Assembly (NCBI GenBank): GCA_964610055.1
Contig: CAZSUC010000001.1
Span: 588,977-652,976, forward strand
Direction: 5' to 3'
Length of the DNA: 64,000 nt
From: an uncultured Candidatus Saccharibacteria bacterium
GTDB lineage: Bacteria > Patescibacteriota > Andersenbacteria > UBA10190
Shown here: one piece after another, positions 4,029 to 40,097 of the stretch
Layout of the letters: each line of letters starts with the position of its first letter
How positions within the stretch are numbered: the stretch's first letter is position 1
Position numbers and translations under genes: made by a program
The notes under the pieces: model-generated
Told to the model about the DNA's origin: nothing
The model's database searches: none
The model's input: only the letters and a program-made list of their open reading frames with translations

Positions 4029-5003
4029 ATGAAACGCAAAGTTTGGATTCCATACGACTGGGCCGAAATCGGCGGCCCGTCTTCTTTTTTATCATCCTTT
4101 AAATCAGGACTGGTAAACTTTGGTTTTTCTGTTTCAGCCCGACCTAACATATCTTTTGACACGCTGTTTATTATGTCCGCCTGTCCGTTATCTTATGTTA
4201 TCCTTGCAAAACTGCTAAGACGACGCATTGTTCAACGCCTTGACGGCGTTTATCACCCTGGCCTCCCGGGCCGAAACGGCCGCCTTTATTGGTTTAAAAA
4301 TTTACGCGCCCAAATCATCCATAATTACCTAGCAAATCATATTATTTACCAAAGTCAATTCAGCCAAAAGGCTTGTCATCTTCTTTTAGGAAAACCTAGC
4401 GGCCAAACTTCAATCATCTATAATGCCATCGCCTATAAATTTCCAGCACGCGCCCCAATTAGTCGTAAAAATATCCGCCTCATTACTTTTGCTAATTGGC
4501 GCCGCTTAGACCAAATCGATCCCATTATTAAAGTAATATCATTACTACCAGACAATTTTACCTTGGACATAGCCGGCCCTGCCTCCCCCTCCTTACAATC
4601 AGTTCTAACTCAAGCCAAATCGCACTCCCGCATTACCTACTTAAGCAAGATACCCCATGAAGAACTACTCTTGCGTCTCAATCAATACGACATTTTTCTA
4701 TTCTCCGACCAATCAGCCTGTCCTCACAGCGTCCTAGAAGCTCTTGCTGCCGGCCTCCCTGTCGTCGCTTTTGATCGCGGTGCCTCTGCCGAGCTTGTTC
4801 AAACTGGACAAACCGGCGAAATTATCCCTCTGCCTCCTCATAACCCTTTTAAAGATAGCTACCAATTTTCTGACCAGGATATTAGTGCATTTACTCACGC
4901 TATAACCAAAACTGCCAATAATCTCGTCGAATACCAAAAACACACATCTGAACACCAAACTGGCTACCATGATATGCTTCAAGCATACGCCAATCTACTT
5001 TAA
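4029..5003 (+). CDS. Glycosyltransferase family 4-like
   Basis: The C-terminal region reads HSVLEALAAGLPVVAFDRGASAELVQTGQTGEII. Confidence 0.75.
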   Translation: MKRKVWIPYDWAEIGGPSSFLSSFKSGLVNFGFSVSARPNISFDTLFIMSACPLSYVILAKLLRRRIVQRLDGVYHPGLPGRNGRLYWFKNLRAQIIHNYLANHIIYQSQFSQKACHLLLGKPSGQTSIIYNAIAYKFPARAPISRKNIRLITFANWRRLDQIDPIIKVISLLPDNFTLDIAGPASPSLQSVLTQAKSHSRITYLSKIPHEELLLRLNQYDIFLFSDQSACPHSVLEALAAGLPVVAFDRGASAELVQTGQTGEIIPLPPHNPFKDSYQFSDQDISAFTHAITKTANNLVEYQKHTSEHQTGYHDMLQAYANLL

Positions 5004-5014
5004 CCCTGCTCTCT

Positions 5015-5674
5015 ATGCCTGTTATCTCACTATTGCTTCTTAAACTTCAAAAATCATCTTGGCGTCTCGTTATATTGCGCCACCTGCTTGACTACGATAA
5101 CCATCTGCGCCGTTGGATTACTTTCTTTGCCATGGAAAAAGGTATCCACCCGAAACACCGCCTAACTCGCTACCACGATTTTTTTCTGGACCACATCTCT
5201 GCTAACCAATCCGTCTTAGACGTTGGCTGTGGCGCAGGCTACCTCGCCTATGATATTGCTTCTAAATCCGTCTCTATTACCGGAATCGATATTAACCCGG
5301 TTTCCATCAAACACGCCCGCCGAAATTCGCTCCCAAATATTAAATTCATTGTCGGCGACGCCACCGTTTATACCTTTCCGAACACATTTGACGTTTTAGT
5401 GTTAAGTAACGTTCTTGAACACATTCAAAACCGTCCTGAATTTCTGAAAAAACTAAAACACTTAGCCCCTAAAATTCTTATCCGCGTACCCATGATTGAC
5501 CGTGATTGGACAGTACCACTAAAAAAAGAAATGAACCTCGAATACTGCTTAGATCCTACTCATGAAATCGAATACACTGAATCCATATTCCGCCAAGAAA
5601 TGGCCGCCGCCAAACTATGTGTACAAGAGCTAAGTATTCGTTGGGGAGAAATATACGCTGTTGTCACTGCCTGA
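5015..5674 (+). CDS. Class I SAM-dependent methyltransferase
   Basis: Motif I is VLDVGCGAGYLAYDIA, and the downstream VLVLSNVLEHI segment fits the family. The exact start is uncertain. Confidence 0.75.
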   Translation: MPVISLLLLKLQKSSWRLVILRHLLDYDNHLRRWITFFAMEKGIHPKHRLTRYHDFFLDHISANQSVLDVGCGAGYLAYDIASKSVSITGIDINPVSIKHARRNSLPNIKFIVGDATVYTFPNTFDVLVLSNVLEHIQNRPEFLKKLKHLAPKILIRVPMIDRDWTVPLKKEMNLEYCLDPTHEIEYTESIFRQEMAAAKLCVQELSIRWGEIYAVVTA

Positions 5675-5675
5675 C

Positions 5676-6470
5676 ATGAAAAAATATTACGACCGACAAC
5701 ACCACCGACTGGTTTATCTACATACTCAGGCCAACTCTTCATTTTGGGATAACCAGTGGCAATCCCCCCGTCTTAAAGAAAAAATTCTAGCTGACAGTCG
5801 TAATCCTTTCTATGTACACATCACTCGACGTTATCTACCAGTCATAAATCCCGCCCCTAAAATTTTAGAAGGTGGCTGCGGGCAAGGAGCAGTCGTACTC
5901 AGCCTCCTCCAAGCCGGATATAAATCTGAAGGAATAGACTTTGCTCATAAAACTATCACCAAAGTAAACCAAATTTTCCCTAACCTGCCCCTTCAAACCG
6001 GCGACGTCACAAAACTACCTTATTCCTCCAACTACTTTGACGGTTACTGGTCATTAGGAGTAATTGAGCACGATTACAATGGATTTACTGCCCTAATTCA
6101 CGAAGCCCACCGCGTTCTCAAATCAAATGGATACCTTTTTCTCACTTTCCCCTACATGTCATTTACCCGAAAAACTAAAGCCGCTTTAGGCTTGTACCCC
6201 GACTGGCACGCCTCATCAACCAACCTCAGTAATTTTTACCAATTTGCCTTAGACCACCTGCAAACTTTAAACGAAATTACAAAATTTGGTTTTGTAGTTA
6301 AAGCAGGGAATCCAATCGATGGATATAAAGGCTTCCAGGAAGAAATACCCATCTCCCAACCCCTGATCAAATTAATTAAACGGCTCCCGCGTCCGCTGCC
6401 GTACGCCCTCTCTACCCTCCTCACGCCAGTTAGCGGACATATTTACCTTGCCGTCTTTCAAAAACAATAA
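5676..6470 (+). CDS. Class I SAM-dependent methyltransferase
   Basis: Motif I is ILEGGCGQGAVVLSLL, and GVIEHDYNG is also present. ATG 5676 lies 1 nt after the upstream TGA, which makes it more plausible than 5661. Confidence 0.75.
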   Translation: MKKYYDRQHHRLVYLHTQANSSFWDNQWQSPRLKEKILADSRNPFYVHITRRYLPVINPAPKILEGGCGQGAVVLSLLQAGYKSEGIDFAHKTITKVNQIFPNLPLQTGDVTKLPYSSNYFDGYWSLGVIEHDYNGFTALIHEAHRVLKSNGYLFLTFPYMSFTRKTKAALGLYPDWHASSTNLSNFYQFALDHLQTLNEITKFGFVVKAGNPIDGYKGFQEEIPISQPLIKLIKRLPRPLPYALSTLLTPVSGHIYLAVFQKQ

Positions 6471-7493
6471 TTACTTCTTAGAAACAATAGTCTTCCCCAT
6501 ACTCTTTTCCGTATCTAATTTGCCATAACGAACATGAAAATTATCTGCAATATAGCCTAAAACGTCTTTGCGTTCTTGTACGCCTTGGATTGTATCGAGC
6601 CCCGCTCCCTCGCCCAAAATGTAATCAAATACCAAAATACCATTATCTTCTAACGCCTCATGCATTCGTTTAACTGTATCCAGCGGCCTATTCAAATGTT
6701 CAAACACAGTCATACAATAAATCACTTCTACTTTTCCTTCTGTTTTTAACTGGAATTCATCCGCCGGATCTAATACCAGCGGAAACACATTCTGATTACA
6801 TCCCAACTTATACGCTCCAAAATGAAATGCTAGCGTCGCAATATCACTAATAAATATTAACCCTTGTCTGCTTTTAGGCCAAAATTCCAACAACGTGGTA
6901 GTAATTGGAGCAGTCCCGCACCCGAATTCTAAACTCTTAGCTGGCCAACGCGGCGCTACTTGTCCCATCAAATTTAATAATGCTAATTCATTAGCACGCG
7001 ACTCCTTGTAAACCAAGTGTAGCAACTGGTACAAAACTTCTGGCTGCTGCCAAGCGCTTAAATGCTGCTCCGCCCCCGCCGCTCCCGGTACGTTGCTTTG
7101 TTGAAACTTCAATCGATACCAACTACGCAAAAAGTATAAATCCTCTGGCCCCCACAACGGTCTTCCTCCCAACACCTGGGACCAGTAGCGCTGAAAGACT
7201 TCAAACCAAGACTGATCCAATCCAGTTCTCCGCCACCAATGCCACGCATAATTCCTAGCTCTTAACGGCAACCAGCTAGTTCTATACACTTTATGAAATG
7301 GGTCTTTCAACCAATCATCAGATACATCTTCTCGATTTTCCGGCGGATATTGCGCGTATAGCTCAGATACATTCACTTGCATATTTCCATACCCATCCTT
7401 ATCTAAATCTATATTCTCATTACTCAACATCTGATATATTGTGCACGAGATGACCATACCTGCCAATAGCAAACCAATTAGATTTTTTCCCAT
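6471..7493 (-). CDS. Membrane-anchored class I SAM-dependent methyltransferase
   Basis: Motif I is LEFGCGTAPITTTL, followed by CMTVFEHLNRP, with an N-terminal hydrophobic helix GLLLAGMVISC. The ORF is open up to 7571 and start choice (7493, 7457 or 7430) is uncertain. Confidence 0.7.
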   Translation of the reverse strand: MGKNLIGLLLAGMVISCTIYQMLSNENIDLDKDGYGNMQVNVSELYAQYPPENREDVSDDWLKDPFHKVYRTSWLPLRARNYAWHWWRRTGLDQSWFEVFQRYWSQVLGGRPLWGPEDLYFLRSWYRLKFQQSNVPGAAGAEQHLSAWQQPEVLYQLLHLVYKESRANELALLNLMGQVAPRWPAKSLEFGCGTAPITTTLLEFWPKSRQGLIFISDIATLAFHFGAYKLGCNQNVFPLVLDPADEFQLKTEGKVEVIYCMTVFEHLNRPLDTVKRMHEALEDNGILVFDYILGEGAGLDTIQGVQERKDVLGYIADNFHVRYGKLDTEKSMGKTIVSKK

Positions 7494-8460
7494 TGCCGAC
7501 ACCGCTAGTGGCTGGTATCCTGACCGAGCCTTACAAGAATTTAAACAAGCCTCCTCCCTAAAGCTTGTCACTTCCCCTCACCAAGCAGACCTAATTTGGA
7601 TATTCTCTTACTACTTATCTCTTAATCCAATTTTGTCATGGCCACACCTGCGCCATCTTCTAAACCAACCACCCCTACGACATAAATCTTTAACACACAC
7701 GCCCGTCATTACTACTATTCACCACCTCTCCCCGCAGAAAAAAAATATCTGGCATCCAATCATAACTAACCTGGAACACATCACCGACTATTGGCATACA
7801 GCCAACCCAACAGGGCACGCGACTATTTCCAGCATCAGCTCAAAACCCATTATAGATTTACCTTATTGGATTGATACCAATCTTTTTCAGCCTTTCACGT
7901 CCAGCCAAAAACAAGCTAATCGCCAAAAGTTAAACATCCCCAAAGACCATTTAATCATTGGTAGTTTTCAACGTGACACTGAAGCAGACGGACAGACCCC
8001 CAAGCTGGACAAAGGTCCCGACATCTTCTGCGATATTATCGCTAAAATCCCGCAACCAGTCTTCGTAGTACTCACAGGAACTCGTCGCCAATATGTGGAA
8101 AAACGCCTAAAATCGGATAATATTCCGTATCTTAATGTTGGACATGTGCCCTATCATGATCTTCCCCGCTTATATTCCATCCTTGACTATTATTTAGTCA
8201 CCGCTCGCCTGGAAGGCGGCCCCCAGTCTATTCTTGAAACTATGGCAACCAATACCCCTATCCTTAGCACCTCGGTTGGTATATCCGGCCTCCTGCACTC
8301 CTCCGCTATTTTCTCGCCGGAATCCTTTACCCCTGATATTCTTCGCGCTGCCAACTCACCTCAAGTCCTTGCTCAACATCTAACTACTGCCACGCAATAT
8401 AGCATACAAAACATTATTCCTCAATACGATCAGGCTTTGGCACAGATATGCACAAACTAA
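7450..8460 (+). CDS. Glycosyltransferase (GT4-like C-terminal half)
   Basis: YLVTARLEGGPQSILETMATNTPILSTSVGISGLL resembles the GT4 nucleotide-sugar binding region. The start is uncertain (GTG 7441 or ATG 7450) and lies in a 5'-5' overlap with the divergent gene. Confidence 0.65.
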   Translation: MTIPANSKPIRFFPIADTASGWYPDRALQEFKQASSLKLVTSPHQADLIWIFSYYLSLNPILSWPHLRHLLNQPPLRHKSLTHTPVITTIHHLSPQKKNIWHPIITNLEHITDYWHTANPTGHATISSISSKPIIDLPYWIDTNLFQPFTSSQKQANRQKLNIPKDHLIIGSFQRDTEADGQTPKLDKGPDIFCDIIAKIPQPVFVVLTGTRRQYVEKRLKSDNIPYLNVGHVPYHDLPRLYSILDYYLVTARLEGGPQSILETMATNTPILSTSVGISGLLHSSAIFSPESFTPDILRAANSPQVLAQHLTTATQYSIQNIIPQYDQALAQICTN

Positions 8461-8461
8461 T

Positions 8462-9490
8462 ATGAAAGTCTTCATCTCCTTCCCAATCAAATCAAAGCCT
8501 TACGGCGGCGCTAACCAGTTTCTCAAAGCACTCGCAAAAGAGTTAGAACTCACTGGTCACTTAACTCAAAATCCTGCAACCGCAAGTTTAATTCTCGTGA
8601 ACGCCAACCCCAGTAACTTATTCTTTGGATTTCAACAAGCCTTACGCTTAAAACAAAAGTTCCCTAAAGCCAAAGCCGTTATCCGAATTGATGGTCCCAT
8701 TTCACTTATTCGGAATACCAATAACACTATTGATAAACTAATTTTAAAACTATCTAACCTCTTGGCCGACGGCATCATCTTTCAGTCGCAATGGAGCGCA
8801 AAACATAACAATCTCATCCAGACGGTCACCGCCCCTAACCAAACCGTTATCTACAACTCTCCGGATAATCACATATTTTATCCGCAAACTACCCCAAAGC
8901 CCAGCGTCCCTATCCGCCTAATTGCGACTTCTTGGTCCTCTAATCAAAACAAAGGTTTTAGCTTTTATAGGTACATTGACGAAAACCTTGATTTTAAAAA
9001 ATACCACATGACCTTTGTCGGCAATGCGCCACAAACTTTTAAAAACATCCGCTGTCTTTCCCCCGTCTCATCTCACCAACTCGCCCACTTACTTAGACAA
9101 AGCGACATCTATATTACCGCTTCACGTAACGACCCCTGTTCTAACGCTCTGATTGAAGCCCTGGCGTGTGGACTTCCCGTCGTTGCCATGAATAGCGGCG
9201 GACACCCTGAGCTAGTCCAAAACAACGGGGAACTATTCCAAAACGCAACCGAATTGATCCAGAAGCTAGAAACAATCATATCTAATTATTCTCGTTACAC
9301 AAATCGGCTTCCCCGCTTTTCAATTAGTCAGACTGCCACCGAATACGTCCAATTTTTTAGCCAGGTTTCAGACACCCGCTCCACTCCCATCTCTATCTGG
9401 AAAACTTATCGTTACTGGACAATATGGGGAAAATACTATTTCACTACCATGGTTTCCGGAATCATCTCCCGAATCTTCCCTAAAATATAG
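8462..9490 (+). CDS. Glycosyltransferase family 4-like
   Basis: Contains ITASRNDPCSNALIEALACGLPVVAMNSGGHPELVQNNGELF. 342 aa. Confidence 0.75.
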   Translation: MKVFISFPIKSKPYGGANQFLKALAKELELTGHLTQNPATASLILVNANPSNLFFGFQQALRLKQKFPKAKAVIRIDGPISLIRNTNNTIDKLILKLSNLLADGIIFQSQWSAKHNNLIQTVTAPNQTVIYNSPDNHIFYPQTTPKPSVPIRLIATSWSSNQNKGFSFYRYIDENLDFKKYHMTFVGNAPQTFKNIRCLSPVSSHQLAHLLRQSDIYITASRNDPCSNALIEALACGLPVVAMNSGGHPELVQNNGELFQNATELIQKLETIISNYSRYTNRLPRFSISQTATEYVQFFSQVSDTRSTPISIWKTYRYWTIWGKYYFTTMVSGIISRIFPKI

Positions 9491-10374
9491 GCTGCTGCTG
9501 CTCCGTTCTGTATGTGTTGCGCAAAGTATTTTAGATTGTTTTTCGATATTTCCTTGCGCAGATTCTCATTTTTCAGGACAGGTAAGAGCTGTTTAGCTTT
9601 CTCCTTATACTCACTGCATAATTTTAAAAACTCAGCAGATGACAAATTATTATCCATTGGTCCGCTTAAACCTAAGCTCATATAGTGCACTTTCTCCCGT
9701 ACCGGAACGGGCCAATATGAAGTCGGCGGATAATCAGCTATCACTGCTCCTCCAATACTCATATAGTCAACCATTTTGAAACTTAGACAATCATGCTTCC
9801 CCCTGTTAAGAACATTCCAACGTGCCTGGCGGTTCCATTCTAACCATTTTTGATACGGCACATTATCTTTCCAAACTTCCACCCCGGCTTCTTGTAATAG
9901 CGCCCCCCACCGCTCATGGTCATCTGAACTCACCATCCTAGCCGCCAGTTTCATTTTAAAAGGCAAAGACGCTAACGCCAAAAACATCGCCACCTTATGA
10001 GGACGCCCCCCTGAAATACCAGCCAGCCAAACAATATCATACACCCTACGTTCCTCAGGAAGCGGGAAATTATGCTTTGTTAATGTCGTGCCGTTTAAAG
10101 ACGACACAACATTAACAGGATACAACCTCCCCGGATCATAATTAGCCTTAAAGTAAACCCCGTACTGCGTCGGATCATAGGCTAAGTCCTTACTATCTGT
10201 CACATCAATCAAATACGGTAAACCGTTGACTTCAAAATAAAAACAAGCCGGAGGACTACTTTTACGCAGATGTGGATATAGCTTAATTTTTCCCTGTCGC
10301 GCCAATTGCCAAAACTGCCGCATCCAAAAGCGGCTATACCAATGCGGATTAATTGCTATCGTGACTTTATCCAT
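9436..10374 (-). CDS. Hypothetical protein, possible glycosyltransferase (candidate nonulosonate transferase)
   Basis: 312-aa ORF with no motif I can name. The C-terminal part (HDCLSFKMVDYMSIGGAVIADYP) loosely resembles exostosin/GT-B-type acceptor-side folds. It lies immediately downstream of pseI. Confidence 0.55.
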   Translation of the reverse strand: MDKVTIAINPHWYSRFWMRQFWQLARQGKIKLYPHLRKSSPPACFYFEVNGLPYLIDVTDSKDLAYDPTQYGVYFKANYDPGRLYPVNVVSSLNGTTLTKHNFPLPEERRVYDIVWLAGISGGRPHKVAMFLALASLPFKMKLAARMVSSDDHERWGALLQEAGVEVWKDNVPYQKWLEWNRQARWNVLNRGKHDCLSFKMVDYMSIGGAVIADYPPTSYWPVPVREKVHYMSLGLSGPMDNNLSSAEFLKLCSEYKEKAKQLLPVLKNENLRKEISKNNLKYFAQHIQNGAAAAYILGKIREMIPETMVVK

Positions 10375-31659: not shown

Positions 31660-33930
31660 ATGTCGCCTTTTTCTCGTCCTTACTTTGCCTTATTAATTGT
31701 TAGCGCTTTAGCGCTCTGGCCGCTTTTTTTCGGCCGTTTTTACGGTATTGGCGATACACGCTCCGTTTATATTCCCATCGAGCATTTTTTTGCTGAGCAA
31801 CAACGGCACTTTAATTTACCGGCCTGGATGCCAGACACTGCTTGGGGTTTTCCGGTAATTGCTTCTGCTCAAATCGGTTTCTTTTATCCGCCTCTTTTAC
31901 TGACACGCTTCTTACCTATCTTTATTTACCTGCCGTTATTACTCTGGCTCCACATCTTTTTTCTCGGTATCGGCGCCTATCGTTTGGCCCGAACCCTAAA
32001 TATTAGTCAAAACGGCGCCCTGATTACCGCCCTATCCATTGCTCTTAACGCCTTTCTTTGGCAGCACTTAACCCACCTAAACATTATTTTTGCTTTGGCT
32101 TGGTTTCCTTGGCAATTACTCGCCGCTCATTACTTAGCCAGATCACATCGACCTAATTTCAAACAATTTGCCGGCTTAGTTTTCACTTTAGGCCTCCCGT
32201 TTTTAGCTGGCCAACTTCAAGTTCCTTTTCTCACCGCTCTTTTCTCTACCATTTATTATTTCGTTTCTTTACCCAAAAAGCCTTTCCCCTCTCGACATCT
32301 CCTCATTTTCCTCGGCGCAACTCTTTTGACTATTACTCTCACCGCCGTCCAAACATTTCCCACCCTAGAGCTCACATTCCTTTCCAGCCGTGGATCAACT
32401 AATGAATTTTCTTTGGAACGAGCTAATCAACATAGTTTTCCTATTTATCATCTACCCACCTTACTTTTTCCACGCTTTTTCGGCTCAGATAATACTTATT
32501 GGGGGAAACGTATTGAAATAGAATACGGCTTTTTCTTCGGCGTCATTCCGCTATGCCTCAGCTTTATTGCTATATTCAACAAATCACGTCGTTACCGTTT
32601 CTGGATTATCAGCGGCTTCATAGCTTTTCTGTTAAGCCTGGGCGAATTTTCTCCTTTTCGCTTAGTTGGCTTAGAGCCATCGCTCTGGTACTTTTCTGCT
32701 CCCGCCCGTTGGCTATTCTTCACCGTTTTTTCTGGATCAATCCTTGCTGGTTTTGGTTATGATCTTTTGCCTAATATCTCACCTCGTTACCTGCGCATCC
32801 TTAAATCAACTATTGTAACCATATTAAGCTGCGTCATTTTATATAATCTCGTCCTTTGGCTCTTGCCGGAAAATTTTGCTTCTTATGTTCTAACCTGGTT
32901 GCAATCACAAAATCTCACCGGCGCTCGCGATTCAGCCTATTATTTAGATAAGATTAATTCCTTACTCTCCTCTGCAAAACACACGGGCTTATCACTTGCT
33001 TCGCCATATACTTACATCACTCTCATTCCTTTGCTCGCCATTCCATGGCTCTTCCAAAAACATCACTCGTGGCTTATTCCTCTCACAGCTATTGAACTCA
33101 TCTTAATTGCCAGTACGGCCAATCCAAGTGTTACTTGGTCCAATATTCTAACTCCTCCTGCCAGCATCTCTGCCCTTCCTCAAAGTGTTACCAGCGATCA
33201 CGCTCGCATCATTTCAATCTCAGCTCCCGGCGATACAGGGCTTTGGCTAACTAACCCTGAAACCCGTGCCGATACCGCTCGTCGCGAACAATATCGTCAA
33301 CAACTCGAACCACTCACTCACTCACTTTTTAATCTTGCCGGTTCTCAATGGCCCGCCTCGCTGGATCTACAATCTCAGGCACATACTTTAGAAAATTTAC
33401 TCGAATCACGCCAAGATCAACTATACATTGATTCTGACAAAGCCGCTGCTCTCAATATCGGTGCTGCCTTAATTGCCAACGAAGCTCCCCACACTGTTTC
33501 AGAAGTACTACCCCAAAATATTGCACCGAATATCTTCTTGTATTCCTTCTCTCCTCAACCTCGCGCTTCTCTTTTAACTGAAGACCAAACCGAATTAGCG
33601 CTTCCATACGACAACACTAATCCTAATCACCAAACTTATACCCTCTCATCATCTACTCCCGCGACCCTTATTATTCGCGACACCTGGTACCCTGGTTGGC
33701 AAGCCACACTTGACGACCAACCCGTTAACATTGATACCTATAACAATATTTTCCGTTCTGTTTCGGTTCCCTCCGGATCACATACCGTTTCTTTCACCTA
33801 TCATCCTACTTGGCTTTATTACGGTCTAGCTATTTCGCTTACCACTCTTGGTTTTCTAATATTTGTGCTGATGTACAATAATCATATCTACACTGTTCCC
33901 TTTATTTTAAGGAGGAAGACCATTGGCTGA
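31660..33930 (+). CDS. YfhO-family polytopic membrane protein
   Basis: 756 aa. Contains NLPAWMPDTAWGFPVIASAQIGFFYP, and the C-terminal RDTWYPGWQATLDDQPVNIDTYNNIFRSVSVPSGSHTVSFTYHP plus a terminal TM. Confidence 0.75.
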   Translation: MSPFSRPYFALLIVSALALWPLFFGRFYGIGDTRSVYIPIEHFFAEQQRHFNLPAWMPDTAWGFPVIASAQIGFFYPPLLLTRFLPIFIYLPLLLWLHIFFLGIGAYRLARTLNISQNGALITALSIALNAFLWQHLTHLNIIFALAWFPWQLLAAHYLARSHRPNFKQFAGLVFTLGLPFLAGQLQVPFLTALFSTIYYFVSLPKKPFPSRHLLIFLGATLLTITLTAVQTFPTLELTFLSSRGSTNEFSLERANQHSFPIYHLPTLLFPRFFGSDNTYWGKRIEIEYGFFFGVIPLCLSFIAIFNKSRRYRFWIISGFIAFLLSLGEFSPFRLVGLEPSLWYFSAPARWLFFTVFSGSILAGFGYDLLPNISPRYLRILKSTIVTILSCVILYNLVLWLLPENFASYVLTWLQSQNLTGARDSAYYLDKINSLLSSAKHTGLSLASPYTYITLIPLLAIPWLFQKHHSWLIPLTAIELILIASTANPSVTWSNILTPPASISALPQSVTSDHARIISISAPGDTGLWLTNPETRADTARREQYRQQLEPLTHSLFNLAGSQWPASLDLQSQAHTLENLLESRQDQLYIDSDKAAALNIGAALIANEAPHTVSEVLPQNIAPNIFLYSFSPQPRASLLTEDQTELALPYDNTNPNHQTYTLSSSTPATLIIRDTWYPGWQATLDDQPVNIDTYNNIFRSVSVPSGSHTVSFTYHPTWLYYGLAISLTTLGFLIFVLMYNNHIYTVPFILRRKTIG

Positions 33931-34126
33931 TGACAAAGACCAAGACGAACGAAACCGACGACTTACAGAAGCCCTTGCGCCGTTAGGGCGAGGCGAGCTT
34001 CCTGACGGTACACCCATTGACCTAGCCGCCATCTCTGAACGTGCAAATCGGAAAGCCTGGATTTTTGCGCGCCGGCTTAGAGATAGCGCAGTACGTGACA
34101 ACCGCCGATACAAGGGTCAACACTAG
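33923..34126 (+). CDS. Small hypothetical protein (67 aa), paralog of 34285-34476
   Basis: TTG start lies 7 nt after GGAGG (33911-33915). It shares ERNRRLTEALAPL...IDLAAISERA with the second copy, and a perfect terminator follows. Confidence 0.5.
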   Translation: MADDKDQDERNRRLTEALAPLGRGELPDGTPIDLAAISERANRKAWIFARRLRDSAVRDNRRYKGQH

Positions 34127-34141
34127 CCCACCTCCTTACGT

Positions 34142-34169
34142 CCCGTGCCACATCGGCACGGGCTTTTTT
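34142..34169 (+). terminator. Rho-independent terminator
   Basis: CCCGTGCC-acatc-GGCACGGG forms a perfect 8-bp stem, followed by C and T6. Confidence 0.7.
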
Positions 34170-34284
34170 ACAATTTATTCCGTCCCAGTCTCTCATACCG
34201 GTATAAAATTTCTACTTTTGTAGATCGATATAGTATATTAACTTTATCTTTTGTTCCCTTCACTTTTAGTAGGAGGATAAACCG

Positions 34285-34476
34285 TTGGATAATGAAAACG
34301 AACGAAACCGACAACTTACCGTGGCTCTCAATCCATTAAGGACAGGTCTATCATTATCTGACCTCTCCGCAATCGCTGACCATGCCACAGACGACGCCAT
34401 GTCGCATGCCAAAGCAGTTCGTTCAGGAACAGCAAGGACCAGAGCTAAACACAGGTTAGGCCCATACAAAGGCTGA
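34285..34476 (+). CDS. Small hypothetical protein (63 aa), paralog of 33923-34126
   Basis: TTG start lies 8 nt after GGAGG (34272-34276). It carries ERNRQLTVALNPL...LSDLSAIADHA. A 20-nt stretch, gaacgaaaccgacNacttac, is shared between the two copies (33947-33966 and 34300-34319). Confidence 0.5.
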   Translation: MDNENERNRQLTVALNPLRTGLSLSDLSAIADHATDDAMSHAKAVRSGTARTRAKHRLGPYKG

Positions 34477-34509
34477 CCTTTGCGCACCATCACAGTCAGG
34501 AGAATTTTC

Positions 34510-34788
34510 ATGGCAGCAGAAACTTATCATTTCATCCTTTTAGGAAGCCCTCTCTCACGAACAGACTTCCTTAATCCGCTTAAAAGGCGGATACAATTCG
34601 ACATGGGCAAGACAGCTCTCGCTCAAGTCCCAGGCATACGTTTCGGTACCGAATTTCCTATTGCTTGCGCCGTAACCATCACCTGCCCGCGAGAATCACT
34701 GCCAGAACTCCACCGGATCATGACTGAACACAGTTTTCAAGAAGGTAGCCAGGAGATTTCAATCAAAACAGCCAGAGAAATCGCCTAA
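34510..34788 (+). CDS. Hypothetical protein (92 aa)
   Basis: ATG 34510 lies 7 nt after AGGAG (34498-34502). No recognisable motif. A terminator follows. Confidence 0.5.
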   Translation: MAAETYHFILLGSPLSRTDFLNPLKRRIQFDMGKTALAQVPGIRFGTEFPIACAVTITCPRESLPELHRIMTEHSFQEGSQEISIKTAREIA

Positions 34789-34814
34789 CACACCTCCTCC
34801 TTCATCATCCTACT

Positions 34815-34841
34815 CCACCAAGCCAGTCTTGGTGGATTTTT
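34815..34841 (+). terminator. Rho-independent terminator of the small-gene unit
   Basis: CCACCAAG-ccagt-CTTGGTGG forms a perfect 8-bp stem followed by ATTTTT. The U-tract overlaps the stop codon of the convergent ATPase gene. Confidence 0.65.
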
Positions 34842-36135
34842 ATATCCACATCCTATCAATCAATTCTCGCGGTTGTCCGTACCGTAATCGATTTACCGCC
34901 TGCACCTCTACCTTCCCTATAGCCGTTTCTAAACTTAACGGCGGCAAACTCTGCCCCCGAAATGCTCGGTACGTAATTCCGGCCTGAGTCAGACGGATAA
35001 AAAAGTGATATGGCGGCAAGTCCTGAAAATCCTCCACTTGAATCGCCTGCCCCTTATCCCACGATGTTTGCTGAAAGGCCGGCAGTAACGCTTCCGCATC
35101 ATTTGCCCCTATTTGAAAAGCCACCAACGTTCCTACATTACCCAACACCGCCTCTCGCACCTCGTCAGTTAATTGCGCCACATACTGATTAGTTAAATGC
35201 ACAGCTAATCCGTACTTGCGCGCTTCCGACAACATAGAAATGAATGTTTCCGTCATCACATTCTGAAATTCATCGACGTATAAATAAAAGGGAACCCTGT
35301 CTTCGACCGGCATATCGGCACGACGCATTATCGCCGCCTGTAACTTTGCCATCAAAATCAATCCCAACATATATGAATTTAATTCTCCCAGTCTTCCTTT
35401 AGACAAATTCACAATCAAAATTTTGCCATGATTCACAATCTCATCAAACGCCAAAGCATTGCGCTTCTGACCGATGATATTGCGCATCGTCGTATTTGTC
35501 ATAAAGCGACCAAACTTGGAAGTAAAATAATTCAACATTTCCGAGCGATGAAACTGCGCGGTTTTTGCCATCTGCTCTTCCCAAAATGACAATACGACCC
35601 GATCTCGCACATGGCGACGTTTTTCTTGCTCAAATTTTTCATCCGTAAATAAGCGCGGAATCTCAATCAAAGTTCCGCCCGCCGGATCGGCCATAACTGT
35701 TAAAGCCGCATTTCGCATCCAGTGTTCAAACTGCGGCCCAATAATTCCCTGCTGATCCGGATCAAATAGTTTATAAAATATCTGAATCGCCTCGGCCACC
35801 AAAAAATCTTTCTCACTTTCAGTTTTACCATCCAATAAGTTCAAGCCTAATGGCCATTCCGTATCAGCCGGATCAAACAACACTACATCATCCAACCGCT
35901 CCGCCGGAATATTATTTAACAGCCAATCGCACACTTCTCCATGCGGATCAACAAAACAACACCCCGCCCCAGCCTGAATATCCTGCAAAATCATATTTTG
36001 ATACAAAGTCGATTTACCCGTCCCAGTTTTTCCAATGCAATACATATGTCGCATCCGATCTTGCGGTGCTGTTTGAATACTGCGCATTTGATTGCGAAAT
36101 TCAGCGTGTCCAATTACATTCATTCTTTCTGTCAT
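34840..36135 (-). CDS. Soluble FtsK/HerA-superfamily P-loop ATPase, TraD/VirD4 (type IV coupling protein)-like
   Basis: Walker A CIGKTGTGKST, then FVDPHGE, Walker B FYLYVDEFQ, and the C-terminal LSEARKYGLAVHLTNQYVAQL...LGNVGTLVAFQIGANDAE (TraG/TraD C-terminal-type pattern). No TM segment is visible. Confidence 0.8.
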   Translation of the reverse strand: MTERMNVIGHAEFRNQMRSIQTAPQDRMRHMYCIGKTGTGKSTLYQNMILQDIQAGAGCCFVDPHGEVCDWLLNNIPAERLDDVVLFDPADTEWPLGLNLLDGKTESEKDFLVAEAIQIFYKLFDPDQQGIIGPQFEHWMRNAALTVMADPAGGTLIEIPRLFTDEKFEQEKRRHVRDRVVLSFWEEQMAKTAQFHRSEMLNYFTSKFGRFMTNTTMRNIIGQKRNALAFDEIVNHGKILIVNLSKGRLGELNSYMLGLILMAKLQAAIMRRADMPVEDRVPFYLYVDEFQNVMTETFISMLSEARKYGLAVHLTNQYVAQLTDEVREAVLGNVGTLVAFQIGANDAEALLPAFQQTSWDKGQAIQVEDFQDLPPYHFFIRLTQAGITYRAFRGQSLPPLSLETAIGKVEVQAVNRLRYGQPRELIDRMWI

Positions 36136-36136
36136 T

Positions 36137-36361
36137 TCAGCTCCTTTCTACCATTGTAAAATAATTAGCCGGAATAGGACGTGGCGGCAATCCCGGTCGC
36201 ATCACCATAACTACTTTTGTTTCCACCTTAGCTTCAGACGTAATCTTCACTGTCCGCCGCCATGCTTCCAAACGGTTTTTAATTACTCTCTGCGTTTCTA
36301 TTGGCAGCCAATGCTTAATTCGCTCATACTCCTCTTCTACTTTGTGTAATTTTGCTATCAT
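36137..36361 (-). CDS. Small hypothetical protein (74 aa)
   Basis: ATG 36361 overlaps the upstream TGA (ATGA), and its own stop lies 1 nt before the next ATG. This translationally coupled position is the main evidence. Confidence 0.55.
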   Translation of the reverse strand: MIAKLHKVEEEYERIKHWLPIETQRVIKNRLEAWRRTVKITSEAKVETKVVMVMRPGLPPRPIPANYFTMVERS

Positions 36362-38043
36362 ATTGTTTCTTTCATCATCCATTGCCCGATCGCTGATTCC
36401 GCCGTTTGTTCTAGCCATCTTTTCAACGGCCTAACCCCGAACCGCGGATCATATTTCTGCTCAATGTGTTGTCTAATCATATTATCCGACATCGACAAAT
36501 TAACTCCCAAATGACTGAATCGTCTTTCAATCTTCTGTAGTTCCAACCGTCCGATCATCACTAAAGTTTCCGGCGCAAACGGAGCAAAAACAGCAATTCC
36601 CTCAAACCGATTCAAAAACTCCCACCGAAAATATTTAGTCAGCAATGGCAACATCCGCCGACTTAACCATTCCGCACTTGTTACATCCTCTCCTGCCTGC
36701 CAATCAGTCACAATTTCACTTATCCCTATATTCGAAGTCGCCACAATCACGGTTTTCCGGAAATCGATTGTTCGTCCTTGCCCATCAGTTAAACGCCCAT
36801 CTTCTAACACTTGTAAAAAAATATCAAACACCGCTTTATCGGCTTTTTCAATTTCATCCAATAAAACTAACGAATATGGCCTTTGTTGTACTGGATTAGT
36901 TAATTGACCACCACTCTCATACCCAACATAACCAGGTGGCGCACCAATTAAACGCTGTACATTATGTGCTTCCTGGTATTCCGACATATCAACCCTTACC
37001 ATCGCCTTATCTCCGCCGTACAATTCTCGCGCCAACACACGCGCCACCTCTGTTTTACCGACTCCGGATGGACCTAAAAACAAAAATGAACCCAATGGTC
37101 GATCCGGATTCTTCAATCCTAACCATGACCTTTCGATTACTTTTGTTACCATATTTACTGCTTGATCCTGACCAATGACCTGCGCTGCTAATCTACCCCC
37201 CAACCCAGCAATGGCCTTCCTATCTCGCGTTTGAACTTTTATTGTCGACATCCCCAACTTATCACTCAAAACCCGCTGCGCATCTTCATATGCCACAATC
37301 CTCCGCCCCTGCACCACCGCCTCCGCTCCAATGTCATCTAAAAACCTAATTGCCCGTTCGGGCATCGCTAAGCTCGCTGGTAACTGACTCGCTAAATCAT
37401 AGATTGCTTCCGGCATATTAGCAGCCATCTTAATATTATGTTTGAATCCAAAATAAGCGGCGCGATCTCTTAAAATTTCCACCACATCTGCTTTTCCTAA
37501 TTCATCTAATCGAATCCATTCGAACTCACGTACATACTTCGGATAATTTTCCTTAAATTTTATTTCTCCTTCTAACGACAACGCTAACACTAATCTATGC
37601 CTCTGTTTCTGCCAAAACTTACTCCACACATCCGCCATCTGCGCTGTATTCATCACATACTCCAACAGCACCTCTGCCTTATCAATCACCAAAATACAGG
37701 CTGGTAGCGCTCCTAGTGCTTCTCCGTAAAGCCGTAATTTCGCGGCCGGATCATGCGCTCGATTCATTTTTTCCTGCCACCATTTCAAATCTAACTCCAG
37801 AATTGGTGTTTGAATTATCCCCTGCAAACTGCCTTTGACCGCCGCCTGCGCCAACCCTCTCAACAACGCTGTTTTGCCTACTCCTTCTCCTCCTGTCACC
37901 ACCACGTTATTCATTTGATCACGCTCAAATACTCGCGCCATCAAACTCAACTCTCGCTCCCGACCTCTCACTGGCCACTGACGAACTTGAGTAGCCTCTC
38001 GCACTAAATCAATTATATGTATTGTTTCTAATCGCTCAGGCAT
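36358..38043 (-). CDS. Clp/Hsp100-family double-AAA+ ATPase, short form (no N-domain, no M-domain, degenerate NBD1)
   Basis: NBD2 is intact: GPSGVGKT, LLDEIEKA, GAPPGYVGYESGGQLT, VIVATSN, FLNRFEGIAVFAPF and GVRPLKRWL. NBD1 keeps Walker A GGEGVGKT, but Walker B reads ILVIDKAE (E replaced by K) and the KYRGEFE-type pore loop is absent. 561 aa. Confidence 0.85.
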   Translation of the reverse strand: MPERLETIHIIDLVREATQVRQWPVRGRERELSLMARVFERDQMNNVVVTGGEGVGKTALLRGLAQAAVKGSLQGIIQTPILELDLKWWQEKMNRAHDPAAKLRLYGEALGALPACILVIDKAEVLLEYVMNTAQMADVWSKFWQKQRHRLVLALSLEGEIKFKENYPKYVREFEWIRLDELGKADVVEILRDRAAYFGFKHNIKMAANMPEAIYDLASQLPASLAMPERAIRFLDDIGAEAVVQGRRIVAYEDAQRVLSDKLGMSTIKVQTRDRKAIAGLGGRLAAQVIGQDQAVNMVTKVIERSWLGLKNPDRPLGSFLFLGPSGVGKTEVARVLARELYGGDKAMVRVDMSEYQEAHNVQRLIGAPPGYVGYESGGQLTNPVQQRPYSLVLLDEIEKADKAVFDIFLQVLEDGRLTDGQGRTIDFRKTVIVATSNIGISEIVTDWQAGEDVTSAEWLSRRMLPLLTKYFRWEFLNRFEGIAVFAPFAPETLVMIGRLELQKIERRFSHLGVNLSMSDNMIRQHIEQKYDPRFGVRPLKRWLEQTAESAIGQWMMKETI

Positions 38044-38044
38044 A

Positions 38045-39895
38045 TTAGACCATCATTGTCCGATTAACAGTTGTGCCACCCGTAATCTGACTGGATCTTA
38101 TCGTTCCTTCCTCTTCATCTTCTGTTCCTATAATTATCCCGCCACGATGACGCGCTTCTGCCGCTAACTCAATCTCTGTCCCTCTTTGCTTAATCTGACC
38201 AACATAATTATCTAAATCTACTCGCCAACCCGGCTTCTCTCTTTCATTTCTCCAATTTTCTCTTTCCGCCTCTGCTCTCCATTCATATCCAACCGGACCA
38301 TCTGTCACTTGCTCTAAACTATCCGGCTTCGTTTTCGCCTCATAAAAACGATACCTAACTGCATCCCCATCTCGCTCCACTACCGTTACATCCAACACTT
38401 CGCCTTTTACCGTACGCTCTCCCGAAAAATACTGCTGTTCTCTGTTTACTGCGCCTCTAATCACTTTTTCTAGCTCTCCTCGCTCTTCCACCGGCCACAA
38501 ATCCATCACACTCTTTTCTATTTGCTCCGGCATCAACGTTAAAGCGACTTTCTCTTCCATATCTAACTCAACATCAATACCCTGAATTTCCTCTCTTCTT
38601 ACCTCCGCCTTATAAACCGTTTCTACCTTCGGGTACTCTTTCTTTTCCCCAACCTTCACATCTACATTCACATCTACATCTATATTCTCTACATTATTTT
38701 CTCTTCCCTTTTCTAAAATCACTGGTCTTTCAGCTATTTTTTTCTCCTCCGTAATCGCAACTTCAACTCTTTCCTTAACTCTCGTAACGCTTTGCTCCGA
38801 TAAAACCTGGTCGGCTTTCACATCCACCGCTTTCGGCACTAGTCCCGGAAACATCTCCTGTAAACTCACTTCTACTTTCCTAGATTCATTTTTCTGTCCT
38901 AAATCAGTTTGCACTACTTCTGGCATTGAAGCAGCTTCTCTTTCCCCCGCATTTACATACTTTATCTCTATGGCTTCACTCGGCGTATTTTCTATCACCC
39001 GTACCTCTCCTGTCTTCGTCTCACCAGGTTCCTCTTGCTTTAACAACTCCTTACGCAACTCCTCATGATTCCAAACTTCTTCTAGCTGCGGCTCTTCAAC
39101 CTGCCTCTGCTCCACAAACACATCAGAATTAATCGTATTTTCAGATGCTTGTTCTTCTAGTTCTTCTCTTTGATCATCTACTTCCACTCTTTCACCAACC
39201 ATATCCATCGCATTTATATAATTTATCTCAATGCCTTCACTCGACGTATTTTCTATCACTTGCACCTCTTCTTCTCTCACCTCATTGCTTTGCTGTTCTT
39301 GTACCACTACCACTTCTTCTCTAACAAGCTCTTCACTTATCTCATCAACCATACTTTCTGCTTGCGCTTCAATCTCTACTTGTTCTACTTGCGCTTCATC
39401 TTCACTGCCTATCCACTCGTCGCTTTCTTCATTCAAATTAACCGGTACTTCACGAAATTGCACTAACATATATTCTGTTTCTCGTTCTCCCCACTCATTC
39501 ACTTCGTCTTTGACCACCACTGCACAACTTTTAAACTCATGATAAGCCACATATCCACTTTTCGCGCCACATAATGTTTCAAATTGCCCTTCTTCATCCA
39601 TTCCTTCACTACTAATCTCCTGATCATTCCAAAATACCCGTCTCTTACCAGTCGCGTCTTCCCTCACCACGCATTTATATGTCTGCGCCATTTCTAGTCT
39701 TTGCCCTGTCCCTTGCTCTAAATCAACTCGAGCTGATTCTAATCTCATTGTCATTCGCTCATGTTCTTCTGTCTGGCGTTCCTTTTCCGATGCTAATTCT
39801 TCTGCTTGAACCTGTACCTCAGATTCAATCTCTTCAACATCCAACATTTCCTCTAGGCTTTCTTCGGTTTCCGCTATGTTTATACTTTCAGGCAT
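38045..39895 (-). CDS. Hyper-acidic repeat-containing protein (616 aa), function unknown
   Basis: ATG 39895 lies 8 nt after AGGAG. The long central region is Glu/Val/Gln-rich with an internal duplication (EVQVIENTSSEGIEINYINA and EVRVIENTPSEAIEIKYVNA). There is no signal peptide or TM segment. Its stop lies 1 nt before the Clp-like gene's start. Confidence 0.75.
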   Translation of the reverse strand: MPESINIAETEESLEEMLDVEEIESEVQVQAEELASEKERQTEEHERMTMRLESARVDLEQGTGQRLEMAQTYKCVVREDATGKRRVFWNDQEISSEGMDEEGQFETLCGAKSGYVAYHEFKSCAVVVKDEVNEWGERETEYMLVQFREVPVNLNEESDEWIGSEDEAQVEQVEIEAQAESMVDEISEELVREEVVVVQEQQSNEVREEEVQVIENTSSEGIEINYINAMDMVGERVEVDDQREELEEQASENTINSDVFVEQRQVEEPQLEEVWNHEELRKELLKQEEPGETKTGEVRVIENTPSEAIEIKYVNAGEREAASMPEVVQTDLGQKNESRKVEVSLQEMFPGLVPKAVDVKADQVLSEQSVTRVKERVEVAITEEKKIAERPVILEKGRENNVENIDVDVNVDVKVGEKKEYPKVETVYKAEVRREEIQGIDVELDMEEKVALTLMPEQIEKSVMDLWPVEERGELEKVIRGAVNREQQYFSGERTVKGEVLDVTVVERDGDAVRYRFYEAKTKPDSLEQVTDGPVGYEWRAEAERENWRNEREKPGWRVDLDNYVGQIKQRGTEIELAAEARHRGGIIIGTEDEEEGTIRSSQITGGTTVNRTMMV

Positions 39896-40097
39896 ACAAA
39901 AAACTCCTACATGCACAACACGCATGAGGAGAAATCACTAAAAATCCTTATGCGCGTAGGCTCAACAAAGGATTCAGGCACTCTGACTTATGGCTTTTAG
40001 CCCATCACAGTTGCGGCATACCAGCGCCGGATTCTCACCGGCTTTCCCTGATCACACTTTTCAGTGCGCGTGGTGCGAACCACGCCAATCCTCTTTA
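39896..40097 (-). promoter_or_regulatory. Cobalamin riboswitch-like 5' leader (aptamer ~39966-40096, expression platform 39896-39965)
   Basis: The minus-strand RNA reads AUCAGGGAAAGCCGGUGAGAAUCCGGCGCUGGUAUGCCGCAACUGUGA (40005-40050) plus the B12-box-like GCCAUAAGUCAGAGUGCCUG (39975-39994). These are closed by P1 AAGAGGAUU/AAUCCUUU. Downstream, hairpin 39904-39931 (CUCCUCAUGC-guguugu-GCAUGUAGGAG) sequesters the SD and is followed by U6 and then the ATG. Confidence 0.8.

Follow-up and report, generated by a model that had tools for sequence, protein, structure and literature searches.

Two small genes, here called orfA and orfB, were analysed in a stretch of 64,000 nucleotides (nt) from contig CAZSUC010000001.1 of an uncultured bacterium with a Patescibacteria-type genome; the whole stretch is referred to below as the window. 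The two genes are almost certainly real, native and stand-alone paralogues of a conserved protein family, and this family is a rare and previously undescribed group of basic proteins of 62–71 residues. orfA (33923–34126, + strand) begins with TTG and encodes 67 amino acids (aa), and orfB (34285–34476, + strand) also begins with TTG and encodes 63 aa. A GGAGG Shine-Dalgarno site stands 7 nt ahead of the orfA start codon (33911–33915) and 8 nt ahead of that of orfB (34272–34276). The initial annotation had described two small open reading frames (ORFs) with a Shine-Dalgarno site and a TTG start at a spacing of 7–8 nt, and this arrangement held when coordinates and sites were checked in the sequence.

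Relatives were sought with a profile of orfA and orfB in an exhaustive HMMER search of 1.84 billion representatives, which at a cut-off of E 1e-3 returned 12 matches: orfA itself (P0001), eight proteins of 62–71 aa, one protein annotated at 105 aa (P0014), and two long, unrelated ones. The two large matches (P0011 and P0013) are repetitive proteins and were rejected as relatives. The nine outside members (P0004–P0010, P0012 and P0014) scored between E 2e-10 and 1.6e-4, and the small proteins of the family align end to end with the same termini. A profile built from these nine outsiders only recovered orfA at 57.7 bits (E 4.9e-17) and orfB at 49.4 bits (E 2e-14), with no other match among the 1014 six-frame segments of the window. 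orfA, which has the full loop, and orfB, in which four loop residues are deleted, both share the 62–71-aa length and the helix-loop-helix layout of the family. A sensitive profile search, as the initial annotation had suggested, thus found nine outside members for orfA and orfB; for orfC, the gene that follows orfB, no homologue was detected. Word-indexed protein searches with orfA and orfB returned the query itself only; sequence searches of Pfam, NCBIfam, PHROGs, PADLOC and PDB gave no family match (in Pfam none at E ≤ 1 for 11 members), and no relatives were found among viral contigs, phage records and plasmid records. The locus is present in three public copies that match throughout (100% identity). 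In the public gene call P0014 is over-extended to 105 aa (L079 10001–10318); its true start is most likely the internal ATG at L079 10121, which would give 65 aa, since the family alignment and an AAAGGTG site both point to this codon.

The initial annotation would have been contradicted by reading frames that are not conserved in related genomes; other genomes do conserve them. Across seven aligned family coding sequences, the first, second and third codon positions have pairwise identities of 0.469, 0.605 and 0.347, respectively, and the mean BLOSUM62 score was 1.68 in the sense frame versus at most 0.57 in every other one. Each antisense frame is interrupted in at least one of the seven members, and most homologues carry stops there. 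In the window the antisense strand has open frames of 68 and 81 aa, with negative coding scores; the public gene call had placed an antisense ORF of 74/81 aa (34266–34511, − strand) over orfB, and this call is an artefact. The initial annotation had left room for a conserved 20-mer shared by the two genes to be an RNA or DNA motif. It is coding: the residues that it encodes are spelled with different codons in the homologues. Rfam gave no match, even at E ≤ 1, in the region or in the whole window.

At the protein level orfA and orfB are 34% identical (BLASTP, E = 5e-8), which is beyond chance; together with the common family profile this confirms the paralogy that had been proposed for them. 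The shared 20-nt block (33947–33966 and 34300–34319) was also confirmed to have 19 of its 20 positions identical, and it lies within a 52-nt repeat of 73% identity. A second repeat, D2, covers 26 nt 5′ of the starts (33894–33919 and 34252–34277, + strand) and is 81% identical; the orfA copy consists of the last codons of the upstream YfhO-family gene and contains the Shine-Dalgarno site TAAGGAGG (33908–33915), and the orfB copy contains the GGAGG site of that gene. Because this upstream block, Shine-Dalgarno site included, is so similar, the two sequences indicate that tandem duplication took the ribosome-binding region along. A third repeat, D3, joins 34123–34136 with 34785–34798. The two paralogues have degenerated in complementary ways. 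orfA has the canonical loop (PDGTPIDLAAI) and a degenerate basic tail, which has lost the GQARTR motif and ends in ...RRYKGQH-stop with two extra C-terminal residues (QH). orfB lacks four loop residues and has the canonical tail SGTARTRAKHRLGPYKG-stop, ending in ...GPYKG-stop.

The family alignment starts with a basic N-terminal helix, (E/K)R(N/D)xKLxxALxxL, followed by the conserved loop GxGExxDGxPIDL and a second helix that runs into the Arg/Lys-rich tail GQARTRxKxRGxR and ends in (Y/F/W)-x-G-stop. The structure prediction that had been suggested for these proteins was performed with AF2 on an 11-sequence alignment and gave helices at 2–22 and 34–64 joined by a beta-bridged loop, with a mean predicted local distance difference test (pLDDT) score of 86. 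The predicted fold is an antiparallel two-helix hairpin, and in each helix the conserved hydrophobic positions are spaced in an a/d pattern. Fold searches matched generic coiled coils only. The isoelectric point is about 8–11.7 and the grand average of hydropathicity −0.4 to −1.2; the last 22 residues carry a net charge of +3 to +9, with 6–10 Lys or Arg in most members. orfA and orfB proteins are probably cytoplasmic, as neither a signal peptide nor a hydrophobic segment or N-terminus was found in the proteins of the family.

The initial annotation had called the region a mini-island of balanced composition. The balanced composition is only partly correct. The window has an extreme GC skew that is uniform along its length, at about −0.32 for the + strand regardless of gene orientation (mean −0.316), and it is weaker in 33931–34839 (−0.175) and in orfA (−0.018); 50 of 1262 segments of equal length are as weakly skewed as 33931–34839 or weaker. 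The difference is confined to codon positions 1 and 2 and reflects amino-acid content (Gly, Ala, Asp, Glu and Arg codons). At third positions the skew stays native (−0.33 to −0.46, like −0.49 in the YfhO gene). A whole-codon model scores the stretch poorly, and synonymous codon use, conditional on the amino acid, is within about 1–1.5 standard deviations of the + strand genes of the window. Recent horizontal transfer was considered and rejected, as the low codon score stems from amino-acid composition and both synonymous usage and third-position skew are native. An island in the sense of foreign DNA is therefore not what these genes form; they are long-resident chromosomal genes and not recent imports, because their third positions have taken on the strong strand bias of the genome. 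This bias appears in the third-position C:G ratio of 0.31:0.10 in + strand genes and the G:C ratio of 0.32:0.08 in − strand genes, and the G-rich strand carries about three quarters of the long ORFs of the window. A set of 115 related loci, each 8 kb or longer, has a median absolute skew of 0.083; only the Collierbacteria loci L062 (0.321) and L061 (0.294) approach the value of the window.

The two genes belong to two units bounded by terminators. The YfhO-family gene (31660–33930, + strand; Pfam YfhO, E 1e-16) has its stop codon at 33928–33930, and the orfA TTG lies 8 nt inside its end. orfA is probably translationally coupled to the YfhO gene because of this overlap. A predicted intrinsic terminator follows at 34142–34169, composed of an 8-bp stem (hairpin 34142–34162; 7 of the 8 pairs are G-C in the terminator scan), a 5-nt loop, and C plus T6. 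orfB and orfC, separated by a gap of 33 nt with no terminator between them, are probably co-transcribed as a second unit. The terminator predicted from sequence 3′ of orfC (34814–34841) has a stem of 9 bp (hairpin 34814–34836, terminator scan), a 5-nt loop and T5, and its T-run overlaps the stop codon (34840–34842) of a convergent gene for a TrwB/TraD-like ATPase (34840–36135, − strand). The start of orfA within the last YfhO codons, the 33-nt gap and the two terminator-bounded units had all been described before, and all agree with the sequence; the second stem has nine pairs.

orfC (34510–34788, + strand; ATG start, 92 aa) has a Shine-Dalgarno site, AGGAG (34498–34502), 7 nt 5′ of its ATG; the longest ORF begins further upstream, with a TTG at 34480. 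For coding, orfC scores +9.4 bits, which lies above the 99th percentile of wrong frames and below the 5th percentile of the + strand genes of the window, which are mostly membrane proteins. It is reasonably likely to be a real gene, because the Shine-Dalgarno site, the ATG, the following terminator, the length of the ORF and the coding score all point that way. No homologue of orfC was found: a word-indexed protein search returned the query only, and translations of ATPase loci and other libraries were also searched. Matches at L053 and L164 (E about 0.03–0.8) fall in a low-complexity ORF over the end of the ATPase gene and were taken as chance. A weak, out-of-frame match to the family profile inside orfC (34584–34724, E 0.9), which might have been a cryptic third copy, was likewise taken as chance. 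A single-sequence model of orfC is beta-alpha-beta-alpha-beta and ferredoxin-like, a generic match that is uninformative on function.

Gene starts were surveyed for Shine-Dalgarno sites across the whole window (for example 31660, 62253, 3038 and 23503). This genome hardly uses such sites. GGAGG or AGGAG occurs at −21 to −4 of one of the 38 long ATG-start ORFs, and the 4-mer core at five of the 38; counting internal starts adds a few more. Across the + strand of the window, a Shine-Dalgarno site is combined with a start codon and an ORF of at least 30 codons in three places only, namely at orfA, orfB and orfC. A second feature sets these units apart. CACCTCCT, which we take to be the sequence of the 16S rRNA 3′ tail, occurs exactly twice in the 64 kb, each time 2 nt past a stop codon (orfA and orfC) and just ahead of a terminator, so that each transcription unit has a copy of the 16S 3′ tail, CACCUCCU, 2 nt past its last stop codon. 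The copy after orfA is part of CACCTCCTTA (34129–34138, + strand), which matches the 16S 3′ tail (anti-Shine-Dalgarno); the copy after orfC (34791–34798, + strand) lies within repeat D3, and from the sequence both may stem from one event that the duplication copied. CACCTCCTTA is complementary over 8 bp to the orfA Shine-Dalgarno site, and this pairing is predicted with a probability of about 1 for a transcript from 33895 and of 0.21 for one from 33850. A corresponding 5′–3′ pairing was not predicted for the orfB-orfC unit, and the 16S-tail motif was not found after the stop codons of homologues elsewhere. On the − strand both CACCTCCT sites have the sequence of a perfect Shine-Dalgarno site, but neither leads into an ORF that is conserved or scores well.

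The position of the small genes opposite an operon with acidic-protein, Clp-like and TraD-like genes had suggested a connection, and this was not borne out. Relatives of the ATPase (38–66% identity) occur in assemblies labelled Berkelbacteria, Doudnabacteria, Collierbacteria and Saccharibacteria. In about 155 such loci, neither family members nor orfC relatives were found within 6–10 kb by tblastn, phmmer, hmmsearch or six-frame searches. Seventeen of the closest loci keep the ATPase gene together with the ClpB-like gene and a small gene, but not with the YfhO gene, orfA, orfB and orfC, so the conserved gene order stops exactly at the ATPase stop codon. Conversely, the ten homologue contexts (genomes of 35–59% G+C; six contexts shorter than 3 kb) contain no shared neighbour, no Clp-like/TraD-like operon and no orfC-like partner. 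orfA and orfB stand alone, and the adjacent operon is unrelated to them.

The neighbours of the homologues are diverse. In L079 and L089 the small gene follows a tRNA and lies near an S41 peptidase gene. These two loci are syntenic, and the small proteins are 49% identical versus 79% for the peptidases, a difference in sequence identity which indicates that the family evolves fast. In L079 about 5.6 kb (4313–10120) separate tRNA-Ala from the small gene, and this segment encodes a MerR-like protein, an N6/N4 methyltransferase and a CfrBI-like restriction enzyme; in L089 (1–65) the small gene begins about 35 nt past the tRNA 3′ end and the segment is absent. It looks like a restriction-modification island inserted at the tRNA. 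Elsewhere the small gene lies 5′ of a gene for a 662-aa protein with no assigned function (L083), adjoins the ATP synthase gamma gene (L172), or stands ahead of zinc-ribbon and nucleoside deoxyribosyltransferase-like genes (L171). In L081 it lies between Sua5 and GlyA; the latter (L081 2867–3997) is the neighbour of P0007 and, from our reading of its sequence, looks like serine hydroxymethyltransferase. In L085/L086 the gene for P0005 is divergent from a gene for a 394-aa protein with no assigned function and convergent with a 5-formyl-tetrahydrofolate cyclo-ligase gene (L086 2303–2797, Pfam). A one-carbon gene next to a family member in two of the ten contexts was taken as coincidence and not as a folate-gene association.

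The operon itself (34840–39925, − strand) encodes a ClpB-like AAA+ protein of 561 aa without the usual N-terminal part, a protein of about 93 aa, and the TrwB/TraD-like ATPase of 431 aa. The operon is conserved in the range L002–L010 and L091–L100, and the pair of ClpB-like and ATPase genes recurs in 17 of the closest loci. Weak relatives of the protein of about 93 aa occupy the corresponding place in L091 (E 2e-5) and L092 (E 6e-5), and L003 has a still weaker one (tblastn, E 0.001). In the window the operon is preceded by a protein of 616–626 aa with no family match. The longest ORF there (38045–39925, − strand; 626 aa) starts at an ATG at 39925 that has no Shine-Dalgarno site; the true start is probably the in-frame ATG at 39895, because AGGAG lies 8 nt upstream of it and it matches the 616-aa public call.

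What the proteins do was considered from their charge, predicted fold, composition and analogy. The account that we favour, in which native tandem paralogues with a hairpin fold bind nucleic acid, is an even call when taken as a whole. Its functional part, that orfA and orfB are small nucleic-acid-binding modulators with a hairpin core and an Arg-rich contact tail, is offered tentatively. In this proposal the hairpin would be a dimerisation or packing core, the Arg-rich tail would contact nucleic acid, with RNA or the ribosome likelier than DNA, and the conserved free C-terminus (aromatic-x-Gly) would be part of the contact. A heterodimer of the A and B proteins would be possible because orfA keeps the loop and lost the tail motif, and orfB keeps the tail with its loop deleted. 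Arg-rich-motif peptides that bind RNA, such as lambda N and HIV Rev, are similar in composition to the Arg-rich stretch ARTRRKLRGARYKG of the family. Here, in contrast, the stretch is a C-terminal tail on a predicted folded hairpin, and there is no homology: hhalign against lambda N gave a probability of 2.5%, and probabilities were at most 2.5% for bS21, uL29, bS20 and lambda N. Several observations weigh against the favoured account. Function is drawn from charge, fold and analogy, and the proteins match no family in the sequence databases searched; the family is very sparse (ten clusters), more so than would be expected of a core factor that binds nucleic acid; the tail of P0010 is weakly basic, with a net charge of +3; and the coding status of orfC has no homologue behind it and rests on signals, ORF length and a single-sequence model. 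The argument from sparseness is tempered by the under-calling of small genes with non-ATG starts, as happened to orfB.

The unusual start signals lend themselves to a different explanation, by analogy with known systems, in which the proteins would be factors linked to the ribosome or the anti-Shine-Dalgarno sequence that bind near the 16S 3′ tail or modulate its availability. They might then regulate themselves by way of their strong Shine-Dalgarno sites, the tail mimic masking the site or aiding re-initiation. We regard this explanation as unlikely, self-regulation included. In Bacteroidia, which are blind to Shine-Dalgarno sites, rpsU (bS21) is an autoregulated gene led by a strong one (PMC9976891, PMC7797042, PMC13000453). 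5′–3′ pairing between untranslated regions (UTRs) masks the Shine-Dalgarno site of icaR in S. aureus (PMC3868564) and acts in hbs of B. subtilis (PMC5737220). Like bS21, the window proteins are small (about 65–70 aa), basic and mostly helical, and their genes are rare in being Shine-Dalgarno-led, which all three ORFs are versus one in 38 of the long ATG-start ORFs. As in icaR and hbs, a 3′-UTR sequence of orfA is complementary to its own Shine-Dalgarno site, and pairing is predicted with near certainty in the short transcript; both 16S-tail copies of the 64 kb also lie just past the orfA and orfC stops. The resemblance does not extend to homology with bS21: no family member matches PF01165 (Pfam, E ≤ 1, 11 members), hhalign against E. 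coli bS21 gave a probability of 0.3%, and phmmer with E. coli bS21 found nothing in any locus. The family is sporadic and not universal, and far too sparse for a general ribosomal component. Unlike in icaR and hbs, the pairing is predicted for the short orfA transcript only; it falls to the 0.21 given above if orfA is transcribed with YfhO, is lacking for orfB-orfC, and is not conserved in homologues, whose stop codons lack the motif. The two motif copies may moreover go back to the one event mentioned above. We know of no counterpart in rpsU to a 16S-tail mimic after the stop codon. That the family is a new class of such factors sensing or controlling 16S-tail availability, with the CACCUCCU mimic closing the mRNA on its own ribosome-binding site, is quite improbable; if so, an unrelated protein would here serve as the functional counterpart of the bS21/rpsU loop in Bacteroidia.

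Of the roles suggested in the initial annotation (small regulators, antitoxin- or immunity-like proteins, secreted peptides), that of a small regulator is possible. Secretion as peptides does not fit proteins that have no signal peptide or hydrophobic segment and a hydropathicity of −0.4 to −1.2; no double-glycine leader was found in the alignment and no conserved transporter near the ten contexts. An antitoxin or immunity role fares little better. orfB-orfC could be read as a toxin-antitoxin or immunity cassette in which the basic protein neutralises or regulates its 92-aa partner and orfA is a spare copy: the two genes lie close together under one terminator, have sizes typical of such pairs, and resemble type II antitoxins and small immunity proteins in size, two-gene layout and patchy distribution; in L079 a restriction-modification pair even lies just upstream of the family member. 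We consider this very unlikely, since no orfC-like partner is present at any of the ten homologues, Pfam, PADLOC and PHROGs gave no match, no known antitoxin DNA-binding fold is predicted, the orfC model is generic, and the L079 pair sits within the segment that has no counterpart in its relative L089. To our knowledge no toxin family matches the ferredoxin-like model of orfC. The neighbouring ATPase, which is convergent with the small genes and has weak FtsK/HerA-type matches, might instead act on orfA and orfB as substrates or accessory factors, either as an Esx-like pair or as type IV secretion substrates. Substrates of type IV secretion often have positively charged C-termini, and those of type VII are paired hairpins. 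WXG100/Esx pairs of type VII secretion and the window genes share tandem hairpin paralogues, a conserved C-terminal end (here with an Arg-rich tail) and a place next to an FtsK/TraD-type ATPase gene. This would be a highly improbable arrangement in view of the absence of family members within 6–10 kb in all of the related ATPase loci (about 155) and of such an ATPase within 10 kb in the long contexts L079 and L083, and of the break in gene order at the ATPase stop; the window proteins also differ from WXG100/Esx proteins in length (62–71 aa versus about 100 aa), in a loop without Trp, in having no W-x-G motif and in giving no PF06013 match, and they do not co-occur with the ATPase elsewhere. 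Least credible is that the similarity stems from an RNA or DNA motif that does not code, from an attenuator with its leader peptide, or from opposite-strand genes. In favour of this, terminators directly follow the small ORFs, the two genes resemble each other more closely in the 19-of-20 block than elsewhere, and antisense ORFs are open, one of them called automatically. This reading is largely refuted by the codon-position pattern and the frame-specific BLOSUM scores, by the stops and negative scores of the antisense frames, by the lack of an Rfam match, and by a product predicted to fold with a pLDDT of 86; nor are the homologues leaders, because genes on either strand follow them.

The analysis removes a tempting but unsupported link between orfA/orfB and the neighbouring Clp-like/TraD-like operon. 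It also illustrates how small genes are missed or miscalled, as orfB gave way to an antisense ORF in a public gene call and the start assigned to P0014 lay too far upstream. If the ribosome-linked explanation were true, it would represent an independent case of translation control through a few Shine-Dalgarno-led genes in a lineage poor in such sites. Irrespective of this, the work adds a verified, conserved protein family (members of about 65 aa) to the small genes that lack annotation in bacteria with tiny genomes.

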